Assembly (NCBI RefSeq): GCF_001677475.2
Contig: NZ_CP015229.1
Source of the DNA: Escherichia coli
GTDB taxonomy: Bacteria > Pseudomonadota > Gammaproteobacteria > Enterobacterales > Enterobacteriaceae
DNA: 64,000 nucleotides
Direction: 5' to 3' (one strand)
In this document: positions 1 through 41,394 of the stretch, piece by piece
Numbering within the stretch: position 1 is the first letter of the stretch
How the letters are laid out: the number at the start of each line of letters is the position of its first letter
Notes under the pieces: generated by a model
What the model was told of the DNA's origin: nothing
The model's database searches: none
Seen by the model: only the letters and a program-made list of their open reading frames with translations
Translations under genes and position numbers: made by a program

Positions 1-289
1 GTGGCCACTGGCAGGATTTAATATGGCGCAACAGCCAGTCAGACAATGCACCAGCACCACCAGCAGCACGAATCACCCGTGCGTTACTGAAAAACGGCAG
101 CAATGTTTTGTCTTCCACCAGCGGCTGGCGAACGGCAGGAACGACCCCGGACGGCAGATTACGCATGCTTTTCGGTTCCGGCTCCACCAATACCCGGGTA
201 TTGTGGAATACCGGCATGGATTCACGGCCCGGCTTAACGATCACCAGCCCGAGTTCCGGTACCAGAACAGGTCGAAGTAATACCCGCAC
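1..289 (-). CDS. Partial ORF running off the left window edge (about 96 codons visible, possible GTG start near 289); hypothetical prophage protein
   Basis: Hand translation of the minus strand shows one frame open from about 289 to position 1 with protein-like composition; absent from the ORF track, probably because it is truncated. Function not recognised. Confidence 0.3.
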   Translation of the reverse strand, partial: MRVLLRPVLVPELGLVIVKPGRESMPVFHNTRVLVEPEPKSMRNLPSGVVPAVRQPLVEDKTLLPFFSNARVIRAAGGAGALSDWLLRHIKSCQWP

Positions 290-290
290 G

Positions 291-569
291 TTACCTCCAG
301 ATGCGTTGCTGGAATGTGCGAGACGGACGCGGTGGGCGCTCGGAGTACGGCAGCCTGACGTAGATTATCCAGAGACGATAATCGAGGCTGAGGGATTTCT
401 TAATCTCGTATCCACGCCTGCGGTAGTTCTGAATCAGCCATTTGGCCTGTTCTTCAGTGCATGGTTCATGCTGGAACCAGTCAGATTTGAATGTGAGAGA
501 ACGCCGCCCGTGCCTGCTGGCAAAGACGGCTGAATTATCGGAATTGTGTAGTCTGGAATTTTGCGCCAT
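291..569 (-). CDS. Hypothetical prophage protein (92 aa)
   Basis: ORF track entry; co-oriented and tightly packed with neighbouring minus-strand prophage genes; no family recognised. Confidence 0.35.
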   Translation of the reverse strand: MAQNSRLHNSDNSAVFASRHGRRSLTFKSDWFQHEPCTEEQAKWLIQNYRRRGYEIKKSLSLDYRLWIIYVRLPYSERPPRPSRTFQQRIWR

Positions 570-635
570 CGGCTTTCTCCGCTGGCACAGTGTTACTCAA
601 CAGGGGTTCAGCCCTGCGCTGAATTGTAGTTGAAT

Positions 636-899
636 TCACTCATATTCAAAAGCAGAAAAACCAGCCTTAAGCTCAGCTTCTTTCAGAGACTGCAATGATG
701 TGACAAATTCATTTTCACGCAAAATAAAACCATCCGTCACAAATCCATCCACAAAATAAATTAACGCAGCTCCACTCTTCCCTTGTTGAGACTGTAAACA
801 TTTAATACGGCAGTGACTGACAATAGCGCCATTCTCAACGCGCGCAGTGTAGAGGCCATCTTCACTAAAAATTTCACGTAATTCTTCGATTTTCATCAA
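636..899 (-). CDS. Hypothetical prophage protein (87 aa)
   Basis: ORF track entry; same orientation as the prophage late-early genes; no family recognised. Confidence 0.45.
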   Translation of the reverse strand: MMKIEELREIFSEDGLYTARVENGAIVSHCRIKCLQSQQGKSGAALIYFVDGFVTDGFILRENEFVTSLQSLKEAELKAGFSAFEYE

Positions 900-1049
900 C
901 AGAATCCTTCCAGATAAATAGCACTCCCCTGTTCGGGGTCCATCCCTCTTCTCCCTGCGCGCTAACTAAGTAATATGATTCTATTTACCCCAAACGCCCC
1001 CTCAAGAACCGCAACCAATGGAGTACACAAAAAGCTAATCAGCTACGCT

Positions 1050-1082
1050 ACGCAATAAAAAACCCGCCGAAGCGGGTTAAGT
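1050..1082 (-). terminator. Intrinsic terminator-like hairpin downstream of hok
   Basis: GC stem cccgcttcggcggg followed by a U-run when read on the minus strand. Confidence 0.5.
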
Positions 1083-1148
1083 GCGGGCGCGTTGAGGATG
1101 CCTGACACATCAGAGGTGGCGAGGGATTTCTCCCTCGCCAGGTCACTC

Positions 1149-1304
1149 TTACTCCTCAGATTCGTAAGCTGTGAAGACAGCGACCTCCGTCTGGCCGGTT
1201 CGGATTCGCACCTCGCAGAGGTCTTTCCTCGTTACCAGTGCCGTCACTATGACGGTTAAACAGATGACGATCAGGGCGATTAACATCGCCTTTTGCTGCT
1301 TCAT
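1149..1304 (-). CDS. hok: Hok/Gef-family type I toxin (51 aa membrane peptide)
   Basis: Translation MKQQKAMLIALIVICLTVIVTALVTRKDLCEVRIRTGQTEVAVFTAYESEE is near-identical in pattern to Hok/Gef proteins (single TM helix, conserved KDLCEV.IRTG..EVAVF.AYE). The 70-aa ORF track entry 1149..1361 is an upstream in-frame extension. Confidence 0.85.
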   Translation of the reverse strand: MKQQKAMLIALIVICLTVIVTALVTRKDLCEVRIRTGQTEVAVFTAYESEE

Positions 1305-1514
1305 AGCCTGCTTCTCCTTGCCTTTCGGCACGTAAGAGGCTAACCTACATGTGCAAAGCATGAAATTGGCCTCAGATTAATGTTAAGCGTCTTGCCGGAC
1401 GCGTAATGTTAACTGGGGCTTTTCTCTATCTGCCGTTGGTGTTCATGCCCGAGGCAGATAGCCTCAAGCACCCGCTGCAATTCTACTTAACTCTCCTTTT
1501 CCCGCAAACCGTTT

Positions 1515-1598
1515 TTATCCCCAGCGGCAAATCGAATACACCACCAGCGCCACCGCAAGTGCAATTCCTACCGTTGTGAATGCTTCAGGCCAGGTCAT
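1515..1598 (-). CDS. Small hydrophobic peptide (27 aa, MTWPEAFTTVGIALAVALVVYSICRWG)
   Basis: Its ATG overlaps the stop of the upstream 140-aa ORF in an ATGA arrangement; single predicted TM helix; below the ORF track size cut-off. Confidence 0.3.
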   Translation of the reverse strand: MTWPEAFTTVGIALAVALVVYSICRWG

Positions 1599-2017
1599 CG
1601 ATTCACCTCCTGCTCAATATTTTTAAGGTCATTTTCCGCATACAGTATTGCTGTCCTGGCTGCTCGTAACCGGGCTTTGGCATTTTTCTCTTCACGTTCA
1701 AGTTTTTCCACAGCTTCACGAAGAGCATCCCGCTTTGCATAGAGTGATTTAATCTCAGACACTATGTTTTCACCGTTTCTCGCACGGTCGAGAACAAGCT
1801 CGAACGGATCTAAAGCCAATCCGCATCGGTTACAGGTAATCGTACGATTCACTTCTGAAATTGTTGTACGGATATGCTGACAGCATTTTTGCTCGCCGCT
1901 TTTTCTGTCGGTTATCACAACGTTGAGAAGCCCTTCTTCCTCTGATTTTGGTTGCACAAGGGTGATAACATTGTCGATGTCATTTTTCATTAGCCCCCCA
2001 CTCTTGTGGTGATTCAT
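1595..2017 (-). CDS. Hypothetical prophage protein with a C-x2-C zinc-ribbon-like motif and a coiled-coil C-terminus
   Basis: ORF track entry; CCQH...CNRCG cysteine pairs; charged helical C-terminal half; a GGGGG Shine-Dalgarno precedes the internal MKNDIDN start. Confidence 0.5.
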   Translation of the reverse strand: MNHHKSGGLMKNDIDNVITLVQPKSEEEGLLNVVITDRKSGEQKCCQHIRTTISEVNRTITCNRCGLALDPFELVLDRARNGENIVSEIKSLYAKRDALREAVEKLEREEKNAKARLRAARTAILYAENDLKNIEQEVNR

Positions 2018-2190
2018 TCATCACCCCACTCATCACAATATGCTTCGACAGGTGTTTTTCCTGCTTCGTAGTCATCACGCCAGGCTTCAGCATCAACAGC
2101 ACTTCCACCACGTAACTCTGCATAGTCCATTAACAGTTCATGCCATTCTTCAAAACTGACGTTGTATTTAGTTGAACCAAAATCAGCCAT
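2014..2190 (-). CDS. Small hypothetical prophage protein (58 aa)
   Basis: Hand-found ORF MADFGSTKYNVSFEEWHELLMDYAELRGGSAVDAEAWRDDYEAGKTPVEAYCDEWGDE filling the gap between two track ORFs; its stop overlaps the next start. Confidence 0.3.
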   Translation of the reverse strand: MADFGSTKYNVSFEEWHELLMDYAELRGGSAVDAEAWRDDYEAGKTPVEAYCDEWGDE

Positions 2191-2365
2191 TTTGTTCTTC
2201 CTCTTCGTCTTTTATTGCGTGATATGAGTAATTGCAGTAGTTAAAGAAAATTTCTTTTGCTTCATCATGAATTTCATCAGGTGTTGCGTCATCGCCCACT
2301 TCGAATACATCCTCAAAATCTCCACCAGCTATTCCCGTTTCAATAATTATTTTGAACTTTCGCAT
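2183..2365 (-). CDS. Small acidic hypothetical prophage protein (about 60 aa from the internal start MRKFKII)
   Basis: ORF track 2183..2419; the internal start is preceded by a purine-rich Shine-Dalgarno. Confidence 0.4.
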   Translation of the reverse strand: MRKFKIIIETGIAGGDFEDVFEVGDDATPDEIHDEAKEIFFNYCNYSYHAIKDEEEEQNG

Positions 2366-2509
2366 TTCACTACCGCCCTTTCGGGCGGCCTCCTGATGAT
2401 TTGAGAGTGCAAAAATCACTCCGGTTAAGGATTAAATTTTATTTACAGAACTGAATTTAATTATTCAGATATACGTATCTGTAACCCTACGAACCTACTC
2501 ACTGGATGC

Positions 2510-2983
2510 CTATTTCATAAAAATAATCCAGTGAGTTTTATCGTTTTTTCCTGTTCGTTGACCGATAACAGGTTTTCTGTCGGTCAGTGCCAATATCTGG
2601 CGAACAGGTATTTGCGTTTCATTCCATTTGAAAATCAGAACGCCGTATGGCTGCAACACACGAAAGGCTTCTTTAAATCCCTGCCGCAAATCATCACGCC
2701 AGGTATCTTTATTTAGCCGTCCATATTTCTTTCCCATCCAGGCGTTATCACCAACACGCTCAAGATGCGGAGGGTCGAATACAACCATCGAAAAAGATGC
2801 GTCTGCAAATGGTAGTGCACGAAAATCTGCTATCAGGTCAGGGCTAATTATCAGGCGTCGTCCATCACATAATGTGTGCTCTTCTTTTCTGATATCGCTA
2901 AATATCGCCCGGTCGTCATTCTTATCGAACCAGAACATACGACTACCACAGGACATATCAAGAATGGTTGCCGATTCACTCAC
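2510..2983 (-). CDS. Small prophage DNA amino-methyltransferase (probable N6-adenine), orphan
   Basis: Motif I-like LDMSCGSR near the N-terminus and catalytic motif IV-like FDPPH about 55 residues later; no adjacent restriction endonuclease ORF. Confidence 0.7.
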   Translation of the reverse strand: MSESATILDMSCGSRMFWFDKNDDRAIFSDIRKEEHTLCDGRRLIISPDLIADFRALPFADASFSMVVFDPPHLERVGDNAWMGKKYGRLNKDTWRDDLRQGFKEAFRVLQPYGVLIFKWNETQIPVRQILALTDRKPVIGQRTGKNDKTHWIIFMK

Positions 2984-3203
2984 TGTTTACCTCCTGCAAC
3001 GCTACCCGGTACGCCTTCTTTATCCACGCTGTACTGCCATATAACTTCGTCTTCATAAAAAACACCCCTGCACGGCTCGCCGATATCCCCGGACAGGCTA
3101 ACAGCACTGCATCCACCACACGGTTATGCTTCCGGAACTCCATTACAGTACTGCTGATAACCACCTGTCCCACCGGGCCGTAATCCTGATACAGGATTTT
3201 CAC
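2976..3203 (-). CDS. Hypothetical prophage protein (75 aa)
   Basis: ORF track entry in a tightly packed minus-strand gene array. Confidence 0.35.
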   Translation of the reverse strand: MKILYQDYGPVGQVVISSTVMEFRKHNRVVDAVLLACPGISASRAGVFFMKTKLYGSTAWIKKAYRVALQEVNSE

Positions 3204-7378: not shown

Positions 7379-7507
7379 ATGGATTTCGACGCAATCATGG
7401 AAAAGGCTTACGAAGAATACTTCGAAGGCCTTGCCGAAGGCGAAGAAGCTCTCAGCTTCAGTGAGTTTAAACAGACGCTTTCCAGTTCGGCAAAATCTAA
7501 CGACTGA
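7379..7507 (+). CDS. ydfB: YdfB-like small acidic protein (42 aa)
   Basis: Hand-translated MDFDAIMEKAYEEYFEGLAEGEEALSFSEFKQTLSSSAKSND; the ATG lies 1 nt after the ydfA stop; size and position match Qin ydfB. Confidence 0.55.
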   Translation: MDFDAIMEKAYEEYFEGLAEGEEALSFSEFKQTLSSSAKSND

Positions 7508-7536
7508 TAAGAGAAGCGGCACCGCGAGGAATCAGT

Positions 7537-7752
7537 ATGCAGAAACGAGAACCCGTCATCATCGCACCAGACTATACCGAGGATGAAATTTACGAATGGA
7601 TGTGCGGAAAGATACGCGCCATTAATTACCTGAAGCAGGCCGCTGACTACAAAGAGCGCCTCTCTAAAGAACTGGTGTCAGCGGAGCAGGATATTACCAC
7701 TCTGGCAAAAAGCGCGGCATTAAACGTTTCGCGAGTGACTGAAAACTACTGA
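7537..7752 (+). CDS. ydfC: YdfC-like protein (71 aa)
   Basis: ORF track; size and position match Qin ydfC. Confidence 0.6.
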   Translation: MQKREPVIIAPDYTEDEIYEWMCGKIRAINYLKQAADYKERLSKELVSAEQDITTLAKSAALNVSRVTENY

Positions 7753-7841
7753 CCACTGAGCTCAAGTAGTTCTCCACAGATGAAGTGCGTGCGCCGGACA
7801 CGGATAAACCTCCGGCATGCTCTTTAACAATCTGGATATTC

Positions 7842-8288
7842 CTAACCACAAAGAAATCGCATCAATTTGGATTTTGTGGGCAACTTCTCTTGTTGTTCGA
7901 TGGAGACGCCCATTTTGATCTGTGTTTTTAAGATCGCAATATCTTTAAGTGATGACCAAATATGACCATCTGTTTTTTCCAGAATTTTTAACTGAATTTT
8001 CAATTCCGAATCAGAATATTTTTCTGCATCATCAAAAAGCTGCAAATATTCTGCGGATTTTCTCATGGCATTACCTGACTTTTGTCCGAATCCATAAATC
8101 GTTTGGACGGTTGCGATCACAACAATAAAAACGCCAGAAATTTCCGGAATGAATCCGCCAATGACAGATGAACCGAGGATAACACTCACTACTGAGAGAA
8201 GTTTATCGAGACGACCAGTCGCTACAGAAAATAGTTGCTCAAGAAAATAGCCATATAAAATTCTGTCAAGAATATCATCCCGGTCCAT
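7842..8288 (-). CDS. Two-TM membrane protein encoded antisense inside the dicBF operon (148 aa); candidate superinfection-exclusion or abortive-infection protein
   Basis: ORF track; AT-rich codon usage distinct from its flanks; AGGTGA Shine-Dalgarno 7 nt upstream of the ATG; two adjacent hydrophobic helices (about residues 35 to 75) and a charged C-terminal domain; sits in extra DNA absent from the K-12 Qin ydfC-dicF interval as I recall it. Confidence 0.6.
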   Translation of the reverse strand: MDRDDILDRILYGYFLEQLFSVATGRLDKLLSVVSVILGSSVIGGFIPEISGVFIVVIATVQTIYGFGQKSGNAMRKSAEYLQLFDDAEKYSDSELKIQLKILEKTDGHIWSSLKDIAILKTQIKMGVSIEQQEKLPTKSKLMRFLCG

Positions 8289-8746
8289 ACATCATCACCT
8301 GCTTGTTTGGTTGTTGCTGTTCCCCCTCTCCTCCGAAGGAGTTGGAGATGGTTTTGGTCGAATGTTTTTCTCTGGTATGTGATCCCAGACTGTTTTATGC
8401 GTCGAATTGCCACCACCTGCTTGTGCTCTTTGCTCTGTCATATGATTTCCTTGGATCGTTGGGGATATCCAGATTATACAGATTTCCTGTCGTTGGGGAA
8501 TGACGGAAACCACCTCGCCTGACGTGGTTAAAAGCAGGCACACAACACGAAAGCGCACGGCGAAGTTCGTCTCACTGTACGGTGTCGGTAAATTTAATTC
8601 GACCGTGCGCTTCCGGTTGTGGCACTCCGCGAAATGACGCGGCGGTAAGTATGGCGGGGTTATTCTTTCCCCGTTGAGGACACCGGGTTGTCAGGTTGAC
8701 CATACGCTTAAGTGACAACCCCGCTGCAACGCCCTCTGTTATCAAT

Positions 8747-8799
8747 ATTCTGGTGACATTTGGCGGTATCAGTTTTACTCCGTGACTGCTCTGCCGCCC
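8747..8799 (+). ncRNA. dicF: DicF small RNA
   Basis: The sequence tTCTGGTGACaTTTGGCGGTATCAGTTTTACTCCGTGACTGCTCTGCCGCCCTTTTT matches the 53-nt DicF sequence from memory with about two substitutions, ends in a GC hairpin plus U-run, and lies about 185 bp upstream of dicB as in Qin. Confidence 0.65.
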
Positions 8800-8983
8800 T
8801 TTTTAAAAGTGAATTTTGTGATGCGGTGAATGCGGCTCAGCGCACGCGGAACAGTTAAATCGGTAAAGAGGTCATTTGCTGAGTAACGGGAATGCTCTGT
8901 ATCCGGCGTTAATTGTTAACTGGTTAACGTCACCTGGAGGCACCAGGCACTGCATCACAAAATTCATTGTTGAGGACGCGATA

Positions 8984-9172
8984 ATGGAAAAGTTATCATG
9001 CAATGCCAGTACGTCTGAACTTCGTTTCGAAATTGGCGTTATCACTGGAGAAAAAACATTTATTGAAGACGCCATTAAGCAGAGAAAACTCGAGCAGGAC
9101 CTGTTAAATGAAGTATGCATTCCTTCAATGCTGGCTCGTCTGGACCTGCTGCAAAAAGGATATAAACAATGA
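8984..9172 (+). CDS. dicB: DicB-like cell division inhibitor (62 aa)
   Basis: Internal start MEKLSCNASTSELRFEIGVITGEKTFIEDAIKQRKLEQDLLNEVCIPSMLARLDLLQKGYKQ aligns along its length with K-12 DicB (FEIGV, EDAI.KRK, SMLARL); the ORF track 8876..9172 is an upstream extension. Confidence 0.85.
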   Translation: MEKLSCNASTSELRFEIGVITGEKTFIEDAIKQRKLEQDLLNEVCIPSMLARLDLLQKGYKQ

Positions 9173-9360
9173 ATACAACATTTGCACTCGTTCTGACAGT
9201 TTATCTTGTTTCCGGCGAATCTCTTGAGCTGGTGACTGGCTTATACGGTTCAATGAAAGAATGCATGGCTGCCGCAGCAGAACAAAAAATTCCCGGTAAC
9301 TGTTATCCGGTAGATAAAGCTACTCACACTAATAATAACGAAATACCGGCGGGACTTTAA
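9169..9360 (+). CDS. ydfD: YdfD-like small protein (63 aa) with an N-terminal hydrophobic segment
   Basis: Immediately follows dicB with a 4-bp overlap, as ydfD does in Qin; 63 aa with a signal/TM-like N-terminus. Confidence 0.6.
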   Translation: MNTTFALVLTVYLVSGESLELVTGLYGSMKECMAAAAEQKIPGNCYPVDKATHTNNNEIPAGL

Positions 9361-9453: not shown

Positions 9454-11925
9454 ATGAATAAAGTCTTTATTTGCGCAGCTATTCCGGACGAACAGGCAAT
9501 AAAGGAAGAAGGTGCAGTCGCTGTGGCCTCTGCCATTGAAGCCGGTGACGAGCGCCGCGCCCGTGCCAAATTTACCTGGCAATTCCTGGAGCAATATCCG
9601 GCTGCTCAGGACTGCGCTTATAAATTTCTTGTCTGTGAGGATAAACCCGGCATGCCCCGCCCTGCCATTGACTCCTGGGATACCGAATATATGCAGGAAA
9701 ACCGCTGGGATGAGGAATGCGCTTCCTTTGTTCCGGTCGAACCAGAATCCGATCCGATGAACGTCAATTTTGACAAGCTGTCCCCTGAAGTACAGAACGC
9801 GGTCCTGATTAAGTTCGGTACATGTGAAAACATCACCGTTGATATGGCGATTGACGCTCAGGAATTACTGCAGGAAGACGTGGCTACCTTTGACGGGCAT
9901 ATCGTTGAAGCACTGATGAAAACGCCTGAAATTAACGCTATGTATCCGGAACGCAAACTGTTCGCTATCGGATGGGTTAAACACAAATGTAAGCCGGGTA
10001 CCAAATGGACCGAAATTCAGGCTGAATTACGTAACTGGAAAAAACGGCAGGACGCAGAGCGCAAAGAGACTGGAAAATACACGTCTGTTGTTGATCTTGC
10101 CCGCGCCAGAGTCAACCGACATAGCACTGAAAACTCAGCAGAAAAAATCAATTCTGTCACTGCCGCCATTCGTCGCGAATACAAGCAGACCTGGAAAACA
10201 CTGGATAAAGAACTGGCCTATGCTCTCTGGCCTGGTGACATTGATGTCCGGAACATTGACGGCAGCATCCATAGATGGGCAAAAAATGAAGTTATCGACA
10301 AGGATCGCGAAGACTGGAAACGCATCTCCGCATCAATGCGCAAACAGCCTGATGCGATTCGCTACAGCCGTCAGACGATTTTTGGCCTTGTTCGTGAACG
10401 TCCGGTCGACATTCACAAAGACCCCGTGGCACTGAATAAATACATCACTGAATACCTTGCGACAAAGGGCGTGTTTGAAGATGAAGAAGAAGATCAGAGC
10501 GTTGTTGATGTTCTCCAGTCGTCAGCATCACAAACTGATGCAGTGGAAACTGAAGTACCTGATACCCAAAAAAATGAAAGCGCGCTGGAAGATGAATCAT
10601 CTGTAGAGCGTGAGGGGCCGTTCTACTTCCTCTTCAGCGATAAGGATGGAGAAAAATACGGTCGCGCAAACAAACTTTCAGGTCTGAATAAGGCGCTCGC
10701 TGCAGGGGCTACTGAAATCACGAAAGAAGAATATTTTGCTCGAAAAAACGGTACATACTCAGGTTCACAACAAAATACTGGTGCATCTGACACGACCGCA
10801 CAACCAGAGCCGGTAAAAGTTACTGCTGACGAAGTGAACAAAATTATGCAGGCAGCCAATATCAGCCTGCCTGACGCCAGTCAGTTGCTCGCTGCATCAC
10901 GTGGTGAATTTGTTGCAGGGATTAGCGACCCGAATGATCTGAAATGGATTAAAGGGATCCAGACCCGCGATTCTATGAACCAAAACCAGCAAGAAACGGA
11001 ACAGAACGACCAGAAAGCGGAACAAAGCAGCCCAAATGCGCAACAAAACGAGCCAGAAACGAAACAATCCGAACCAGTAGTGCAACAGGAACCGGAAAAA
11101 GTCTGCACCGCCTGCGGTCAGAGCGGTGGCGGCAACTGCCCCGATTGTGGCGCGGTCATGGGCAACGCAACATACCAGGAAACATTCGATGAAGAGAATC
11201 AGGTTGAAGCTCAGGAGAATGATCCGGAGGAAATGGAAGGCGCTGAACATCCACACAAGGAGAACACTGGCGGCAATCAGCATCACGCCAGCGATAGTGA
11301 AACTGGCGAGACGGCAGATCCCTTAATTACGGTGAACAGTCATCACGTTATCACATCCACCAGCAGGACGTGTGACCATCTAATGATCGACCTTGAAGCC
11401 ATGGGAATAAATCCTGATGCCCCGATTATCTCAATAGGTGCAATATTTTTCGATCCGCAAACCGGAGATATGGGACCGGAATTTAGTAAGACTGTCGATC
11501 TGGAAACTGCTGGCGGAGTCATTGATCGGGACGCCATTAAATGGTGGCTTAAGCAATCACGCGAAGCGCAATCTGCCATTATGACCGATGAAATCCCGTT
11601 AGATGATGCACTGTTACAATTGCGGGAATTTATCGACGAAAACTCCGGTGAATTTTTTGTTCAGGTCTGGGGAAATGGAGCAAACTTCGACAACACGATT
11701 TTGCGCCGTTCATACGAACGGCAGGGGATCCCCTGCCCGTGGCGTTACTACAACGATCGCGATGTGCGCACAATCGTTGAGCTGGGGAAAGCCATAGACT
11801 TCGATGCCAGAACTGCTATCCCATTCGAAGGTGAGCGCCATAATGCACTTGATGACGCTCGTTACCAGGCAAAATACGTTTCAGCTATCTGGCAAAAACT
11901 GATCCCGAGTCAGGCTGATTTTTAA
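9454..11925 (+). CDS. Large prophage exonuclease in the RecE position (823 aa) with a C-terminal DEDDh-type 3-prime-5-prime exonuclease domain
   Basis: C-terminal motifs MIDLEAMG (Exo I), WGNGANFDNTIL (Exo II) and HNALDDARYQAKY (Exo III); central low-complexity Q/E-rich linker with C-x2-C...C-x2-C; occupies the ydfE/recE position between dicB-ydfD and xis-int. Confidence 0.75.
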   Translation: MNKVFICAAIPDEQAIKEEGAVAVASAIEAGDERRARAKFTWQFLEQYPAAQDCAYKFLVCEDKPGMPRPAIDSWDTEYMQENRWDEECASFVPVEPESDPMNVNFDKLSPEVQNAVLIKFGTCENITVDMAIDAQELLQEDVATFDGHIVEALMKTPEINAMYPERKLFAIGWVKHKCKPGTKWTEIQAELRNWKKRQDAERKETGKYTSVVDLARARVNRHSTENSAEKINSVTAAIRREYKQTWKTLDKELAYALWPGDIDVRNIDGSIHRWAKNEVIDKDREDWKRISASMRKQPDAIRYSRQTIFGLVRERPVDIHKDPVALNKYITEYLATKGVFEDEEEDQSVVDVLQSSASQTDAVETEVPDTQKNESALEDESSVEREGPFYFLFSDKDGEKYGRANKLSGLNKALAAGATEITKEEYFARKNGTYSGSQQNTGASDTTAQPEPVKVTADEVNKIMQAANISLPDASQLLAASRGEFVAGISDPNDLKWIKGIQTRDSMNQNQQETEQNDQKAEQSSPNAQQNEPETKQSEPVVQQEPEKVCTACGQSGGGNCPDCGAVMGNATYQETFDEENQVEAQENDPEEMEGAEHPHKENTGGNQHHASDSETGETADPLITVNSHHVITSTSRTCDHLMIDLEAMGINPDAPIISIGAIFFDPQTGDMGPEFSKTVDLETAGGVIDRDAIKWWLKQSREAQSAIMTDEIPLDDALLQLREFIDENSGEFFVQVWGNGANFDNTILRRSYERQGIPCPWRYYNDRDVRTIVELGKAIDFDARTAIPFEGERHNALDDARYQAKYVSAIWQKLIPSQADF

Positions 11926-13264: not shown

Positions 13265-13354
13265 TGGCGGAGAGAGGGGGATTTGAACCCCCGGTGGAGT
13301 TGCCCCCACTCCGGTTTTCGAGACCGGTCCGTTCAGCCGCTCCGGCATCTCTCC
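13265..13354 (-). tRNA. serU: tRNA-Ser (anticodon CGA), serU-like
   Basis: Reverse complement reads GGAGAGATGCCGGAGCGGCTGAACGGACCGGTCTCGAAAACCGGAGTGGGGGCAACTCCACCGGGGGTTCAAATCCCCCTCTCTCCGCCA, a 90-nt class II tRNA with a CGA anticodon and long variable arm. Confidence 0.9.
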
Positions 13355-14345: not shown

Positions 14346-14421
14346 TCCTCTGTAGTTCAGTCGGTAGAACGGCGGACTGTTAATCCGTATGTCACTGGTT
14401 CGAGTCCAGTCAGAGGAGCCA
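14346..14421 (+). tRNA. asnT: tRNA-Asn (GUU)
   Basis: TCCTCTGTAGTTCAGTCGGTAGAACGGCGGACTGTTAATCCGTATGTCACTGGTTCGAGTCCAGTCAGAGGAGCCA; canonical E. coli tRNA-Asn with encoded CCA; preceded by the GC-rich discriminator taatatgcgccccgttcac. Confidence 0.95.
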
Positions 14422-29071: not shown

Positions 29072-29147
29072 TGGCTCCTCTGACTGGACTCGAACCAGTG
29101 ACATACGGATTAACAGTCCGCCGTTCTACCGACTGAACTACAGAGGA
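29072..29147 (-). tRNA. asnW: tRNA-Asn (GUU)
   Basis: Exact reverse complement of the 76-nt asnT sequence. Confidence 0.95.
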
Positions 29148-30895: not shown

Positions 30896-30971
30896 TCCTC
30901 TGTAGTTCAGTCGGTAGAACGGCGGACTGTTAATCCGTATGTCACTGGTTCGAGTCCAGTCAGAGGAGCCA
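30896..30971 (+). tRNA. asnU: tRNA-Asn (GUU)
   Basis: Identical 76-nt tRNA-Asn sequence. Confidence 0.95.
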
Positions 30972-35720: not shown

Positions 35721-35796
35721 TCCTCTGTAGTTCAGTCGGTAGAACGGCGGACTGTTAATCCGTATGTCACTGGTTCGAGTCCAGTCAGAGGAGCCA
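35721..35796 (+). tRNA. asnV: tRNA-Asn (GUU)
   Basis: Identical 76-nt tRNA-Asn sequence; same upstream discriminator as asnT. Confidence 0.95.
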
Positions 35797-39959: not shown

Positions 39960-40190
39960 AGACGCGCCTGTACTCTACCTGACGCTTCCGGGCAACCCAC
40001 TTCCCACCGAAGTTGTTGGTATTGACTGACTGGCTGGTCTTCTGGCTTAGCGTCATCCTCACCCGACCTTCCCAATCTCGCGATCAGTGGCATTTTCGGG
40101 TTTGTCAGCATTACAGCAGCGGGGGCTGCGAGGGATTTTCACCCTCTTCCCAGGCACAAATGTGCCACACCTGTCAGCGTATGTTATGAG
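39960..40190 (-). promoter_or_regulatory. Cobalamin (B12) riboswitch in the cob operon leader
   Basis: The minus strand reads ...GGGAAGAGGGTGAAAATCCCTCGCAGCCCCCGCTGCTGTAATG...GCCACTG...GGGAAGGTCGGGTGAGG..., matching the conserved core and the B12 box (GCCACTG) of the cobalamin riboswitch; located between pocR and the first cob-strand ORF as in Salmonella. Confidence 0.8.
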
Positions 40191-41192: not shown

Positions 41193-41394
41193 GATAAAAC
41201 CTCCCAGTTAATTTATTGTTATAGCAAAACAATTGTTTTACATTTAATCTTCACATCATCCTTGATGATTTACTGACGAGAAGCACAAAGGACAATAACA
41301 AAAGCCTCCGTGAAGCGGGAGACTTTTTAATAAGTTCGGAAAGCAGATCACAAACAGTAAAAAAATAAACGTTTATAACTGCCAGATTATTTCG

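Follow-up and report, generated by a model that had tools for sequence, protein, structure and literature searches.

The locus described here resembles two kinds of known system. One is the sieB-esc-sas locus of phages P22 and lambda. The sieB gene is expressed from the prophage, and its product, SieB, halts macromolecular synthesis when superinfecting phages, P22 itself excepted, are midway through their lytic cycle (PMC10883804). Translation of sieB is switched by an antisense RNA, sas (PMC12197685), the P22 version of which was sequenced in 2026 and is 127 nt long (PMC13397905, Table 2). The second kind comprises the SLATT effectors (Burroughs et al. 2015; Pfam SLATT_1-6 and SLATT_fungal, NCBIfam SLATT_1-5). 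In DRT10, SLATT is a required effector and a predicted pore former, and the way in which SLATT effectors become activated has yet to be settled (DRT10 preprint); a reverse transcriptase (RT)-SLATT locus is toxic when sbcB is missing. In this study, a stretch of 64,000 nucleotides from an Escherichia coli chromosome (contig NZ_CP015229.1; called 'the window' throughout) was found to carry, between the prophage genes ydfC and dicF and antisense to them, a cassette that extends both kinds, having a SLATT-like protein as cargo and the control region of a sieB-type exclusion locus.

The interval is a self-contained, horizontally exchanged prophage cassette, in the slot held by sieB in P22 and lambda. 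By analogy with the known systems, it is somewhat probable that the cassette is a prophage-expressed abortive-infection or exclusion device, with the control frame of sieB and a different effector. The anatomy of the cassette (two genes, SLATT fold, sieB and sas homology, boxA sequence) is much firmer than this function.

The insertion between ydfC and dicF

The cassette was delimited by pairwise and multiple alignment with the Qin prophage of E. coli K-12 (L003). Its flanks are a ydfC-like gene (7537..7752, plus strand, from the open reading frame (ORF) list) and the gene for the small RNA dicF (8748..8799, plus strand; Rfam RF00039, 77 bits). The gap between the two flanks measured 995 bp in the window and 340 bp in K-12 Qin, in agreement with a first-pass annotation of the window, made from the sequence alone, which had noted a spacing of about 1 kb relative to a few hundred bp in Qin and had proposed an insertion. 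The alignment confirmed the insertion: homology to K-12 ended at position 7803 and restarted at 8541, with 737 bp in the window (7804..8540, cassette on the minus strand) taking the place of 55 bp. These 55 bp of K-12 were checked as a possible deletion scar, and their similarity to the cassette reached just ~12 nt past the clear boundary. The GC content across 7850-8300 was 0.36-0.40, compared with 0.48-0.52 in the flanks.

Out of 5,426 complete E. coli genomes, 88 (~1.6%) contained some part of the gene for the 148-amino acid (aa) cargo protein, and 71 contained at least 80% of it, while a 1.8-kb query running from ydfB to dicB (7400-9200) had a DNA match in 4,644. All E. coli copies found were chromosomal, and the RefSeq label of the gene is 'hypothetical protein'. 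Strains GB089, RM9088 and O103:H2 PV16-126 are among the carriers. In strain RM11911 the gene lies at the same place with a different gene upstream, and the cassette occurred in unrelated prophage backbones (P2-like and lambdoid), each time as an antisense add-on. The insert is a genuine, rare prophage add-on. The first-pass annotation had called it a moron, and this description held: K-12 Qin and ~98% of complete E. coli genomes lack the block, which is distinct in composition, lies antisense and has its own promoter-like -10 element; the gene, with no known housekeeping role, is missing from most Qin-like prophages. Like the classical phage moron (HK97/HK022 definition), the cassette is extra DNA between two operon genes, missing in relatives, with a different composition and its own putative promoter. 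Unlike it, the E. coli-type cassette has no intrinsic terminator after the gene and carries a boxA on the antisense strand and an antisense-RNA module. Providencia-type relatives do carry a terminator after the gene (GCCCACCCGTGGGC, then T's).

Homology of the control region to the sieB promoter and sas

The ~100 nt upstream of the first gene of the cassette, a proline-rich micro-ORF, were the best-conserved cassette DNA, being 86-89% identical where the SLATT proteins were 44% identical. When window positions 8441-8545 were compared with phages by blastn, they matched P22-pbi at its annotated 'sieB: promoter' and, besides it, 121 other phage records, identifying the module as the region that holds the sieB promoter in P22, lambda and relatives. 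The P22-pbi feature 'P sieB' (L198, 1541-1571) lies inside the match to the cassette module, and a TATAAT -10 hexamer (8473..8478, minus strand) aligns with the annotated P sieB of P22 (alignments A4 and A7). No LexA, CRP, sigma-54 or IHF sites were seen by eye in the conserved 5' element.

Two copies of the repeat TCCCCAACGA (repeat family D3) are present on the minus strand, R2 in the 5' leader (8456..8465) and R1 upstream of the -10 hexamer (8490..8499). Between loci R1 and R2 change together (CCCCAACGA, CCACAACG, CCCCAACATAA and CCCCAATGTAAT, with CCCCTACAG in P22 and lambda), a concerted change that would fit a need for both antisense-RNA copies to base-pair with the one R2 of the mRNA leader. 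At 8508..8540 two stems interleave, S2 (AACCAC/GGTGGTT) and S1 (GCCTG/CAGGC), and these were kept in 55 distinct versions. In 36 aligned versions, both sides had changed in 5 of 12 pairs, compared with 1.5 in shuffles (0/500), and 82% of cells were paired, compared with at most 50% when the partners were slid. This evidence comes mainly from S2, because S1 was fixed by the search pattern.

On the plus strand, positions 8444..8542 show homology to nt 10-113 of sas, the antisense RNA of P22, with identity at 76 of 97 aligned bases (78%). The module, when reverse-complemented, corresponds to P22 sas, which begins across from the start codon of sieB, then covers R2, the -10 hexamer and R1, and has the S2/S1 stems at its end. 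The ends of the sas-like RNA in the window would lie at ~8437 and ~8557. A search of 7700-8760 against Rfam at relaxed thresholds gave chance snoRNA-like matches only.

The cassette has in common with the sieB-esc-sas locus the antisense place inside the early-left operon, the homologous promoter and leader with their stems and concerted repeats, the DNA of the sas region, and a cargo protein built from an N-terminal two-helix membrane hairpin and a cytoplasmic domain. It differs in having two separate ORFs (micro-ORF and SLATT gene), whereas sieB is one ORF with a nested Esc start. No nested Esc-like start was found in the 148-aa protein, the sole internal methionine after the second transmembrane helix (M75) being unconserved. 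Homology of this protein to SieB was considered and rejected (hhalign probability 0.3% against lambda SieB, no Pfam SieB match), and phmmer detected no SieB among the cargo proteins of the sampled contigs.

A further difference lies at the far end of the cassette, which is adjoined by an rrn-type boxA, whereas in P22 the sieB slot lies behind an N-type nutL and the N-like gene 24; the prophage in the window has no such gene nearby. The boxA-type 13-mer, TGCTCTTTAACAA, is on the sense strand of the early operon (7818..7830, plus strand), where the early-operon transcript enters the antisense cassette. No other exact copy occurs in the window. An identical 13-mer is present in the K-12 rrnB leader (L077, 316-328), which we take to be the rrn boxA. 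The 13-mer was absent from the K-12 ydfC-dicF interval, and near-identical copies (TGCTCTTTAACAT, TGCTCTTTAATAA and CGCTCTTTAACAA) accompany the cassette in other backbones (L002, L004, L005, L006 and L025). Judging from sequence and position, it is reasonable to infer that the cassette-borne boxA would keep Rho from terminating untranslated antisense read-through.

Directly upstream of boxA, a hairpin, GCCGGA-N12-TCCGGC, could be read from the sequence (7793..7816, plus strand); a similar one is present in K-12. Both genes are bracketed by an 18-nt inverted repeat (pair I1, 89% complementary; left arm 7829..7846, right arm 8458-8475), which carries a compensating change in L004 (GGATACCC with GGGTATCC). 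The repeat may mark a recombination site, or else the two mRNA ends (5' and 3') may pair through it. Phase-variable inversion at the repeat was rejected, as neither the 46 viral loci nor the sampled E. coli genomes contained an inverted allele.

The SLATT-like protein and its micro-ORF

The 148-aa protein is encoded at 7842..8288 (minus strand), behind a Shine-Dalgarno sequence, AGGTGA (8295..8300, minus strand), that lies 6 nt from the ATG and overlaps the micro-ORF stop codon. The first-pass annotation had reported an antisense 148-aa ORF with a strong Shine-Dalgarno sequence, two transmembrane helices, a charged C-terminal part and low GC, and every one of these sequence facts was confirmed. 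The two hydrophobic helices are adjacent (residues ~30-47 and ~50-67) and are followed by the charged helical C-terminal part. The hydropathy maxima fell at residues 31-67, and basic residues flank both cytoplasmic sides, in accordance with the predicted topology of a two-helix hairpin with both termini in the cytoplasm (N-in/C-in). The AlphaFold2 (AF2) model, with the family alignment as input, was confident and all-helical (predicted local distance difference test score, pLDDT, of 90.8), with helices at 3-44, 48-65 and 67-86 and three more. In this model a long N-terminal helix leads into the first transmembrane helix and is followed by a tight Ile-Pro-Glu turn, the second transmembrane helix and four cytoplasmic helices. 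By model and hydropathy, nearly the whole protein would be on the cytoplasmic side, with a periplasmic loop of ~3 residues.

Comparison of the model with AFDB50 by Foldseek gave 102 matches at E<=1e-3, the best of them full length with a template modelling (TM) score of at least 0.9. Many of the matches were named SLATT (E 1e-7 to 1e-5, TM score 0.90-0.96, 147-156 columns), and two profile-level family members (P0105 and P0109) bear the SLATT name in UniRef; no solved structure resembled the model. Hidden Markov model (HMM) matches to SLATT recurred in the same register at sub-threshold scores: relatives reached 24 bits with NCBIfam SLATT_4 (cut-off 55) and 15 bits with SLATT_1 (cut-off 41), and PADLOC RTasSLATT matched weakly, at E=0.019 for the 148-aa protein and 2.7e-4 for the best relative. 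This was the only component match in PADLOC-DB 2.0, and none was obtained for the micro-ORF. Among 62 aligned relatives, no Pfam domain was detected, apart from one SLATT_fungal match at E=0.095. On the strength of the AF2/Foldseek match and the recurrent HMM matches, the protein was concluded to be, in its predicted fold, a distant member of the SLATT fold class that stands alone and falls outside every curated model. In PHROGs its family is phrog_6315, which has no known function, and an exhaustive HMMER search yielded ~80 cluster representatives, nearly all of 145-180 aa. The ratio of nonsynonymous to synonymous substitution rates (dN/dS) of the SLATT gene was 0.09-0.11. With SLATT effectors the protein shares the predicted fold over its full length, the remote HMM similarity and the mobile-element and defence contexts. 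It differs from them in being under every curated threshold and in being paired with a proline-rich micro-ORF in place of a SMODS, SLOG, TIR, RT or cyclase partner. RT-SLATT sits downstream of the RT template noncoding RNA, whereas the cassette gene is downstream of the DNA opposite the sas-homologous strand.

The micro-ORF, defined by conservation and substitution pattern, encodes 48 aa (MTEQRAQAGGGNSTHKTVWDHIPEKNIRPKPSPTPSEERGNSNNQTSR; 8295..8441, minus strand). It has its own Shine-Dalgarno sequence, AAGGA (8448..8452, minus strand), and its TGA stop codon (8295-8297) lies inside that of the SLATT gene. A possible second upstream gene of 87 aa had been suggested in the first-pass annotation. 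The two-gene cassette proved to be real and the length of 87 aa wrong: an 87-aa ORF (8295-8558) exists mechanically, its GTG start is unconserved, and the conserved coding part consists of 48 codons from the ATG at 8441. Scans of the 87-aa ORF against Pfam, NCBIfam and PADLOC gave no match above threshold.

In almost every relative examined, an ORF of 23-52 aa stops 6-18 nt before the SLATT start. It was present in E. coli, Salmonella and other enterobacterial contigs, in one phage of Providencia and another whose record names Elizabethkingia, in 38 of the 46 close IMG/VR loci and further metagenomic loci, and also in Vreelandella, Chromobacterium and Pseudaeromonas prophages, the two-gene architecture being kept across proteobacterial orders at SLATT identities as low as ~25%. 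In other loci, too, the Shine-Dalgarno sequence of the SLATT gene usually contains the stop codon (TGAGG, TAAGGA or TAGGA; AGGTGA in the window). The shared motif consists of H-[IVML]-P, a basic residue and R/K-P-x-P-P, and many members have 4-8 consecutive prolines, the L047 type for instance having PPPPPP; the window copy has alternating prolines only (RPKPSPTP). Most substitutions in the micro-ORF were at third codon positions and dN was far below dS, which argues that the peptide sequence is under selection. The substitution patterns indicate that both cassette genes are under purifying selection.

In a census of 120 viral contigs, selected solely for the upstream DNA element, the first ORFs were tested for H-[MVIL]-[PS]. 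Among the contigs listed, 18 distinct first ORFs passed, and 17 of these were followed by a gene of the SLATT family (family HMM E 1e-52 to 1e-58), the exception being the hydrophobic 54-aa ORF of L111. A motif-bearing micro-ORF preceded none of the other cargo families listed. Because the motif-bearing ORFs precede the SLATT gene in 17 of 18 cases and occur in front of no other cargo family listed, the micro-ORF is a partner specific to this SLATT family. The E. coli micro-ORF occurs in two versions (E. coli genomes and L025-type loci), which have the C-terminal 28 residues in common and unrelated N-terminal halves (MTEQRAQAGGGNSTHKTVWD and MVVQKNCSGTGKPADRxDIPNTRK), a swap that points to mosaic recombination inside a gene of 150 nt.

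Functional readings of the cassette and the sieB slot

The reading of the cassette as an abortive-infection device draws on the SieB phenotype, the sas switch and the SLATT protein as a predicted pore-forming suicide effector. In the lysogen, the sieB-type promoter would give low levels of a micro-ORF-SLATT mRNA, with SLATT translation coupled to that of the micro-ORF, and the micro-protein would be a positive element (a coupling leader or a cofactor), not an antitoxin. SLATT would reside in the inner membrane, where development of a superinfecting phage would lead to permeabilisation or depolarisation and abort the infection, the outcome being the SieB phenotype produced by a different protein. 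Upon prophage induction or infection by a sibling phage, early-operon transcription would produce the sas-like antisense RNA, which would pair with the leader and the start of the micro-ORF and turn the cassette off, providing self-immunity. Nus factors recruited by boxA would allow the early transcript to escape Rho over ~700 nt of untranslated antisense DNA towards dicF, dicB, the exonuclease and the integrase genes. Exclusion or abortive infection had already been raised in the first-pass annotation, and the idea is now better founded because the 5' region is homologous to the sieB promoter, leader and sas, and the cargo has a SLATT fold.

Several observations weigh against this reading. 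The -35 element is weak, and a consensus promoter scan of the window called no promoter at this position; likewise, neither a promoter nor a terminator for the sas-like RNA was identified in the window, nor a terminator-like site after the SLATT stop codon. Pfam, NCBIfam and PADLOC scans of the 148-aa protein gave nothing above threshold, in line with the failure of the first-pass annotation to name a family. A signalling or sensing partner belongs to the usual understanding of SLATT effectors and is missing from the cassette; in more than 10 contexts (E. coli, Salmonella, Providencia, Vreelandella, Chromobacterium and Pseudaeromonas), no SMODS/CD-NTase, SLOG, TIR, RT or cyclase gene was adjacent. 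In the AF2 model of a SLATT-(GGGGS)6-peptide fusion (17 paired rows), the peptide had a pLDDT of 33-59 and was not confidently docked. The micro-ORF was cleanly lost, with SLATT intact, in 8 of 46 viral loci (L015-L017, L021-L024 and L046) and was deleted in at least three E. coli genomes with SLATT intact (N96, OkiPb01678 and 08-00022). The end points of the natural deletion are a 14-nt direct repeat, CA(C/T)CACCTGCTTGT (8411..8424, with a copy at 8293-8306), and the SLATT gene of the deleted alleles is 95-98% identical. In O145:H28 strains (for example, E. coli O145 strain 95-3192; L060, 1245-2592), an element of the IS3 family of insertion sequences (IS) has cut the SLATT gene to a 92-bp stump. 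Because of the micro-ORF losses and this truncated copy, the cassette appears to be dispensable and sometimes decaying.

Among the alternatives, a superinfection exclusion protein that blocks phage entry, like SieA or HK97 gp15, is unlikely. It would suit a small inner-membrane protein from a prophage moron, and the neighbouring dicB is itself reported to protect against phages via inner-membrane proteins. Against an entry block stand the fold, which is that of suicide-type SLATT effectors, the control module of sieB, which acts late and abortively, and the nearly all-cytoplasmic position of the protein with its very short periplasmic loop.

Also improbable is an addiction module of the toxin-antitoxin (TA) kind, in which SLATT would be a membrane toxin and the proline-rich peptide its unstable antitoxin, stabilising the prophage or killing upon translation shut-off. 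The two genes are indeed small and tightly coupled, the second with a membrane-damaging fold, and the layout recalls hok/mok/sok: a membrane-damaging product would be coupled to a leader ORF, a cis-antisense RNA would be aimed at the start region of the leader, and the 5' leader is complementary (I1) to the region just past the toxin stop codon. A sok RNA is even present elsewhere in the window (1299-1473, minus strand; Rfam RF01794, 113 bits), which puts a hok/sok-type module ~6 kb from the cassette within one prophage region. In contrast to hok, the SLATT product is three times larger and of another fold, and the sas-type RNA (here by DNA homology only) serves phage self-immunity, not post-segregational killing. 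Type I TA systems have a hydrophobic toxin of <60 aa and a constitutive, unstable antisense RNA; here the protein has 148 aa and a SLATT fold, and no antisense promoter was found in the window. The loss of an antitoxin should not be tolerated, yet peptide-deleted alleles with intact SLATT are common, and these natural deletions led to the peptide being disfavoured as an antitoxin; nor did the AF2 fusion show a confident peptide-SLATT contact. Under the sas model, moreover, blocking antitoxin translation would kill the inducing phage's own host.

A variant of the abortive-infection reading, as doubtful as the addiction module, is that the micro-ORF encodes a ribosome-arrest or elongation factor P (EF-P)-dependent sensor peptide. 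This peptide would decide the use of the overlapping SLATT ribosome-binding site, so that the cassette would fire when a phage perturbs translation, with the sas-like RNA as the phage's off-switch. EF-P-dependent polyproline effects on coupling are documented, and leader or arrest peptides such as mgtP/mgtL, SecM and TnaC provide examples. Like such leaders, the micro-ORF is a short ORF just upstream of a regulated gene, with a C-terminal proline-rich motif after a basic residue and a variable N-terminus, and most members of its family hold PPP to PPPPPPPP runs. It differs from them in that the window copy has no consecutive prolines and that no conserved RNA structure joins the proline codons to the SLATT ribosome-binding site. 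Sequestration of the SLATT Shine-Dalgarno sequence by the proline codons was rejected, as minimum free energy (MFE) folds of 15 loci contained no consistent structure. The MFE folds did show the proline codons pairing locally with G-rich codons downstream, perhaps as an effect of composition.

It is very unlikely that the cassette serves the prophage cycle or host physiology (lysis timing, a holin/antiholin-like function, stress response, or division control together with dicF and dicB). The gene does lie inside the dicBF operon beside division inhibitors, and class II holins also have a two-helix membrane hairpin. It would be transcribed, however, against the early operon from a lysogen-type promoter and is absent from most related prophages; the cassette is always an antisense add-on, in unrelated backbones, and the gene, whose PHROG (6315) has no known function, never occurs in a lysis cassette. 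Finally, a decaying, non-functional remnant that persists by hitch-hiking, as suggested by the rarity of the cassette and by the copies that are IS-disrupted or without the micro-ORF, is hardly credible, given dN/dS of ~0.1 for SLATT, dN far below dS for the micro-ORF core and the wide conservation of the two-gene architecture.

The control module was not confined to SieB or SLATT cargo. A pattern scan of IMG/VR for the module returned at least 120 contigs (L078-L197), and among the 120 contigs listed the sieB-promoter/sas-like module (S1/S2, R1, -10 and R2) stood before 76 distinct first ORFs (for example, in L082, L083, L090 and L136). The cargo included a family of 144-aa proteins, in 24 contigs, a large family of ~163-aa proteins with a coiled coil and a zinc ribbon, proteins of 70-80 aa and lipoprotein-like proteins. 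The module with other cargo was also present in L071 (956-2280) and L072, the former with a boxA at the far end as well. As the module precedes many unrelated cargo genes, the slot has the look of a hotspot at which cargo is exchanged under a common control frame. No description of a SLATT/micro-ORF cassette or of a sieB-slot hotspot was found in the searchable literature, outside which much of the older phage literature lies. GiPD474 from Gifsy-1 is an unrelated ATPase.

Other features of the window include an early-operon ORF for an 823-aa 'exonuclease' (9454-11925, plus strand) with a long acidic Gln/Glu-rich low-complexity insert in mid-protein. Four tRNA matches had identical Rfam scores of 72.6 bits (14346-14418, 29075-29147, 30896-30968 and 35721-35793), with a fifth tRNA match at 13268-13354; identical tRNA genes are repeated across 20 kb of the window. 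A cobalamin riboswitch (40015-40189, minus strand, 110 bits) and the small RNA STnc230 (41253-41336, plus strand, 76 bits) are chromosomal and lie outside the prophage.

If the abortive-infection reading is true, the cassette would be a minimal SLATT system without a nucleotide-signalling or RT partner, with a conserved micro-protein in their place; if the micro-ORF is a sensor peptide, it would constitute a minimal 'translation-surveillance' immune trigger without a dedicated sensor protein. As a two-gene cassette of 0.7 kb it is easily cloned, which would make the question of SLATT activation directly testable. The dicBF region has often been studied only in K-12, and the antisense unit that ~1.6% of complete E. 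coli genomes carry between ydfC and dicF could affect the expression of dicF and dicB. From the distribution of the module, the sieB slot may represent a hotspot for exclusion genes that is general among lambdoid prophages, equipped with a self-immunity switch and, in N-less backbones, with an anti-polarity boxA.

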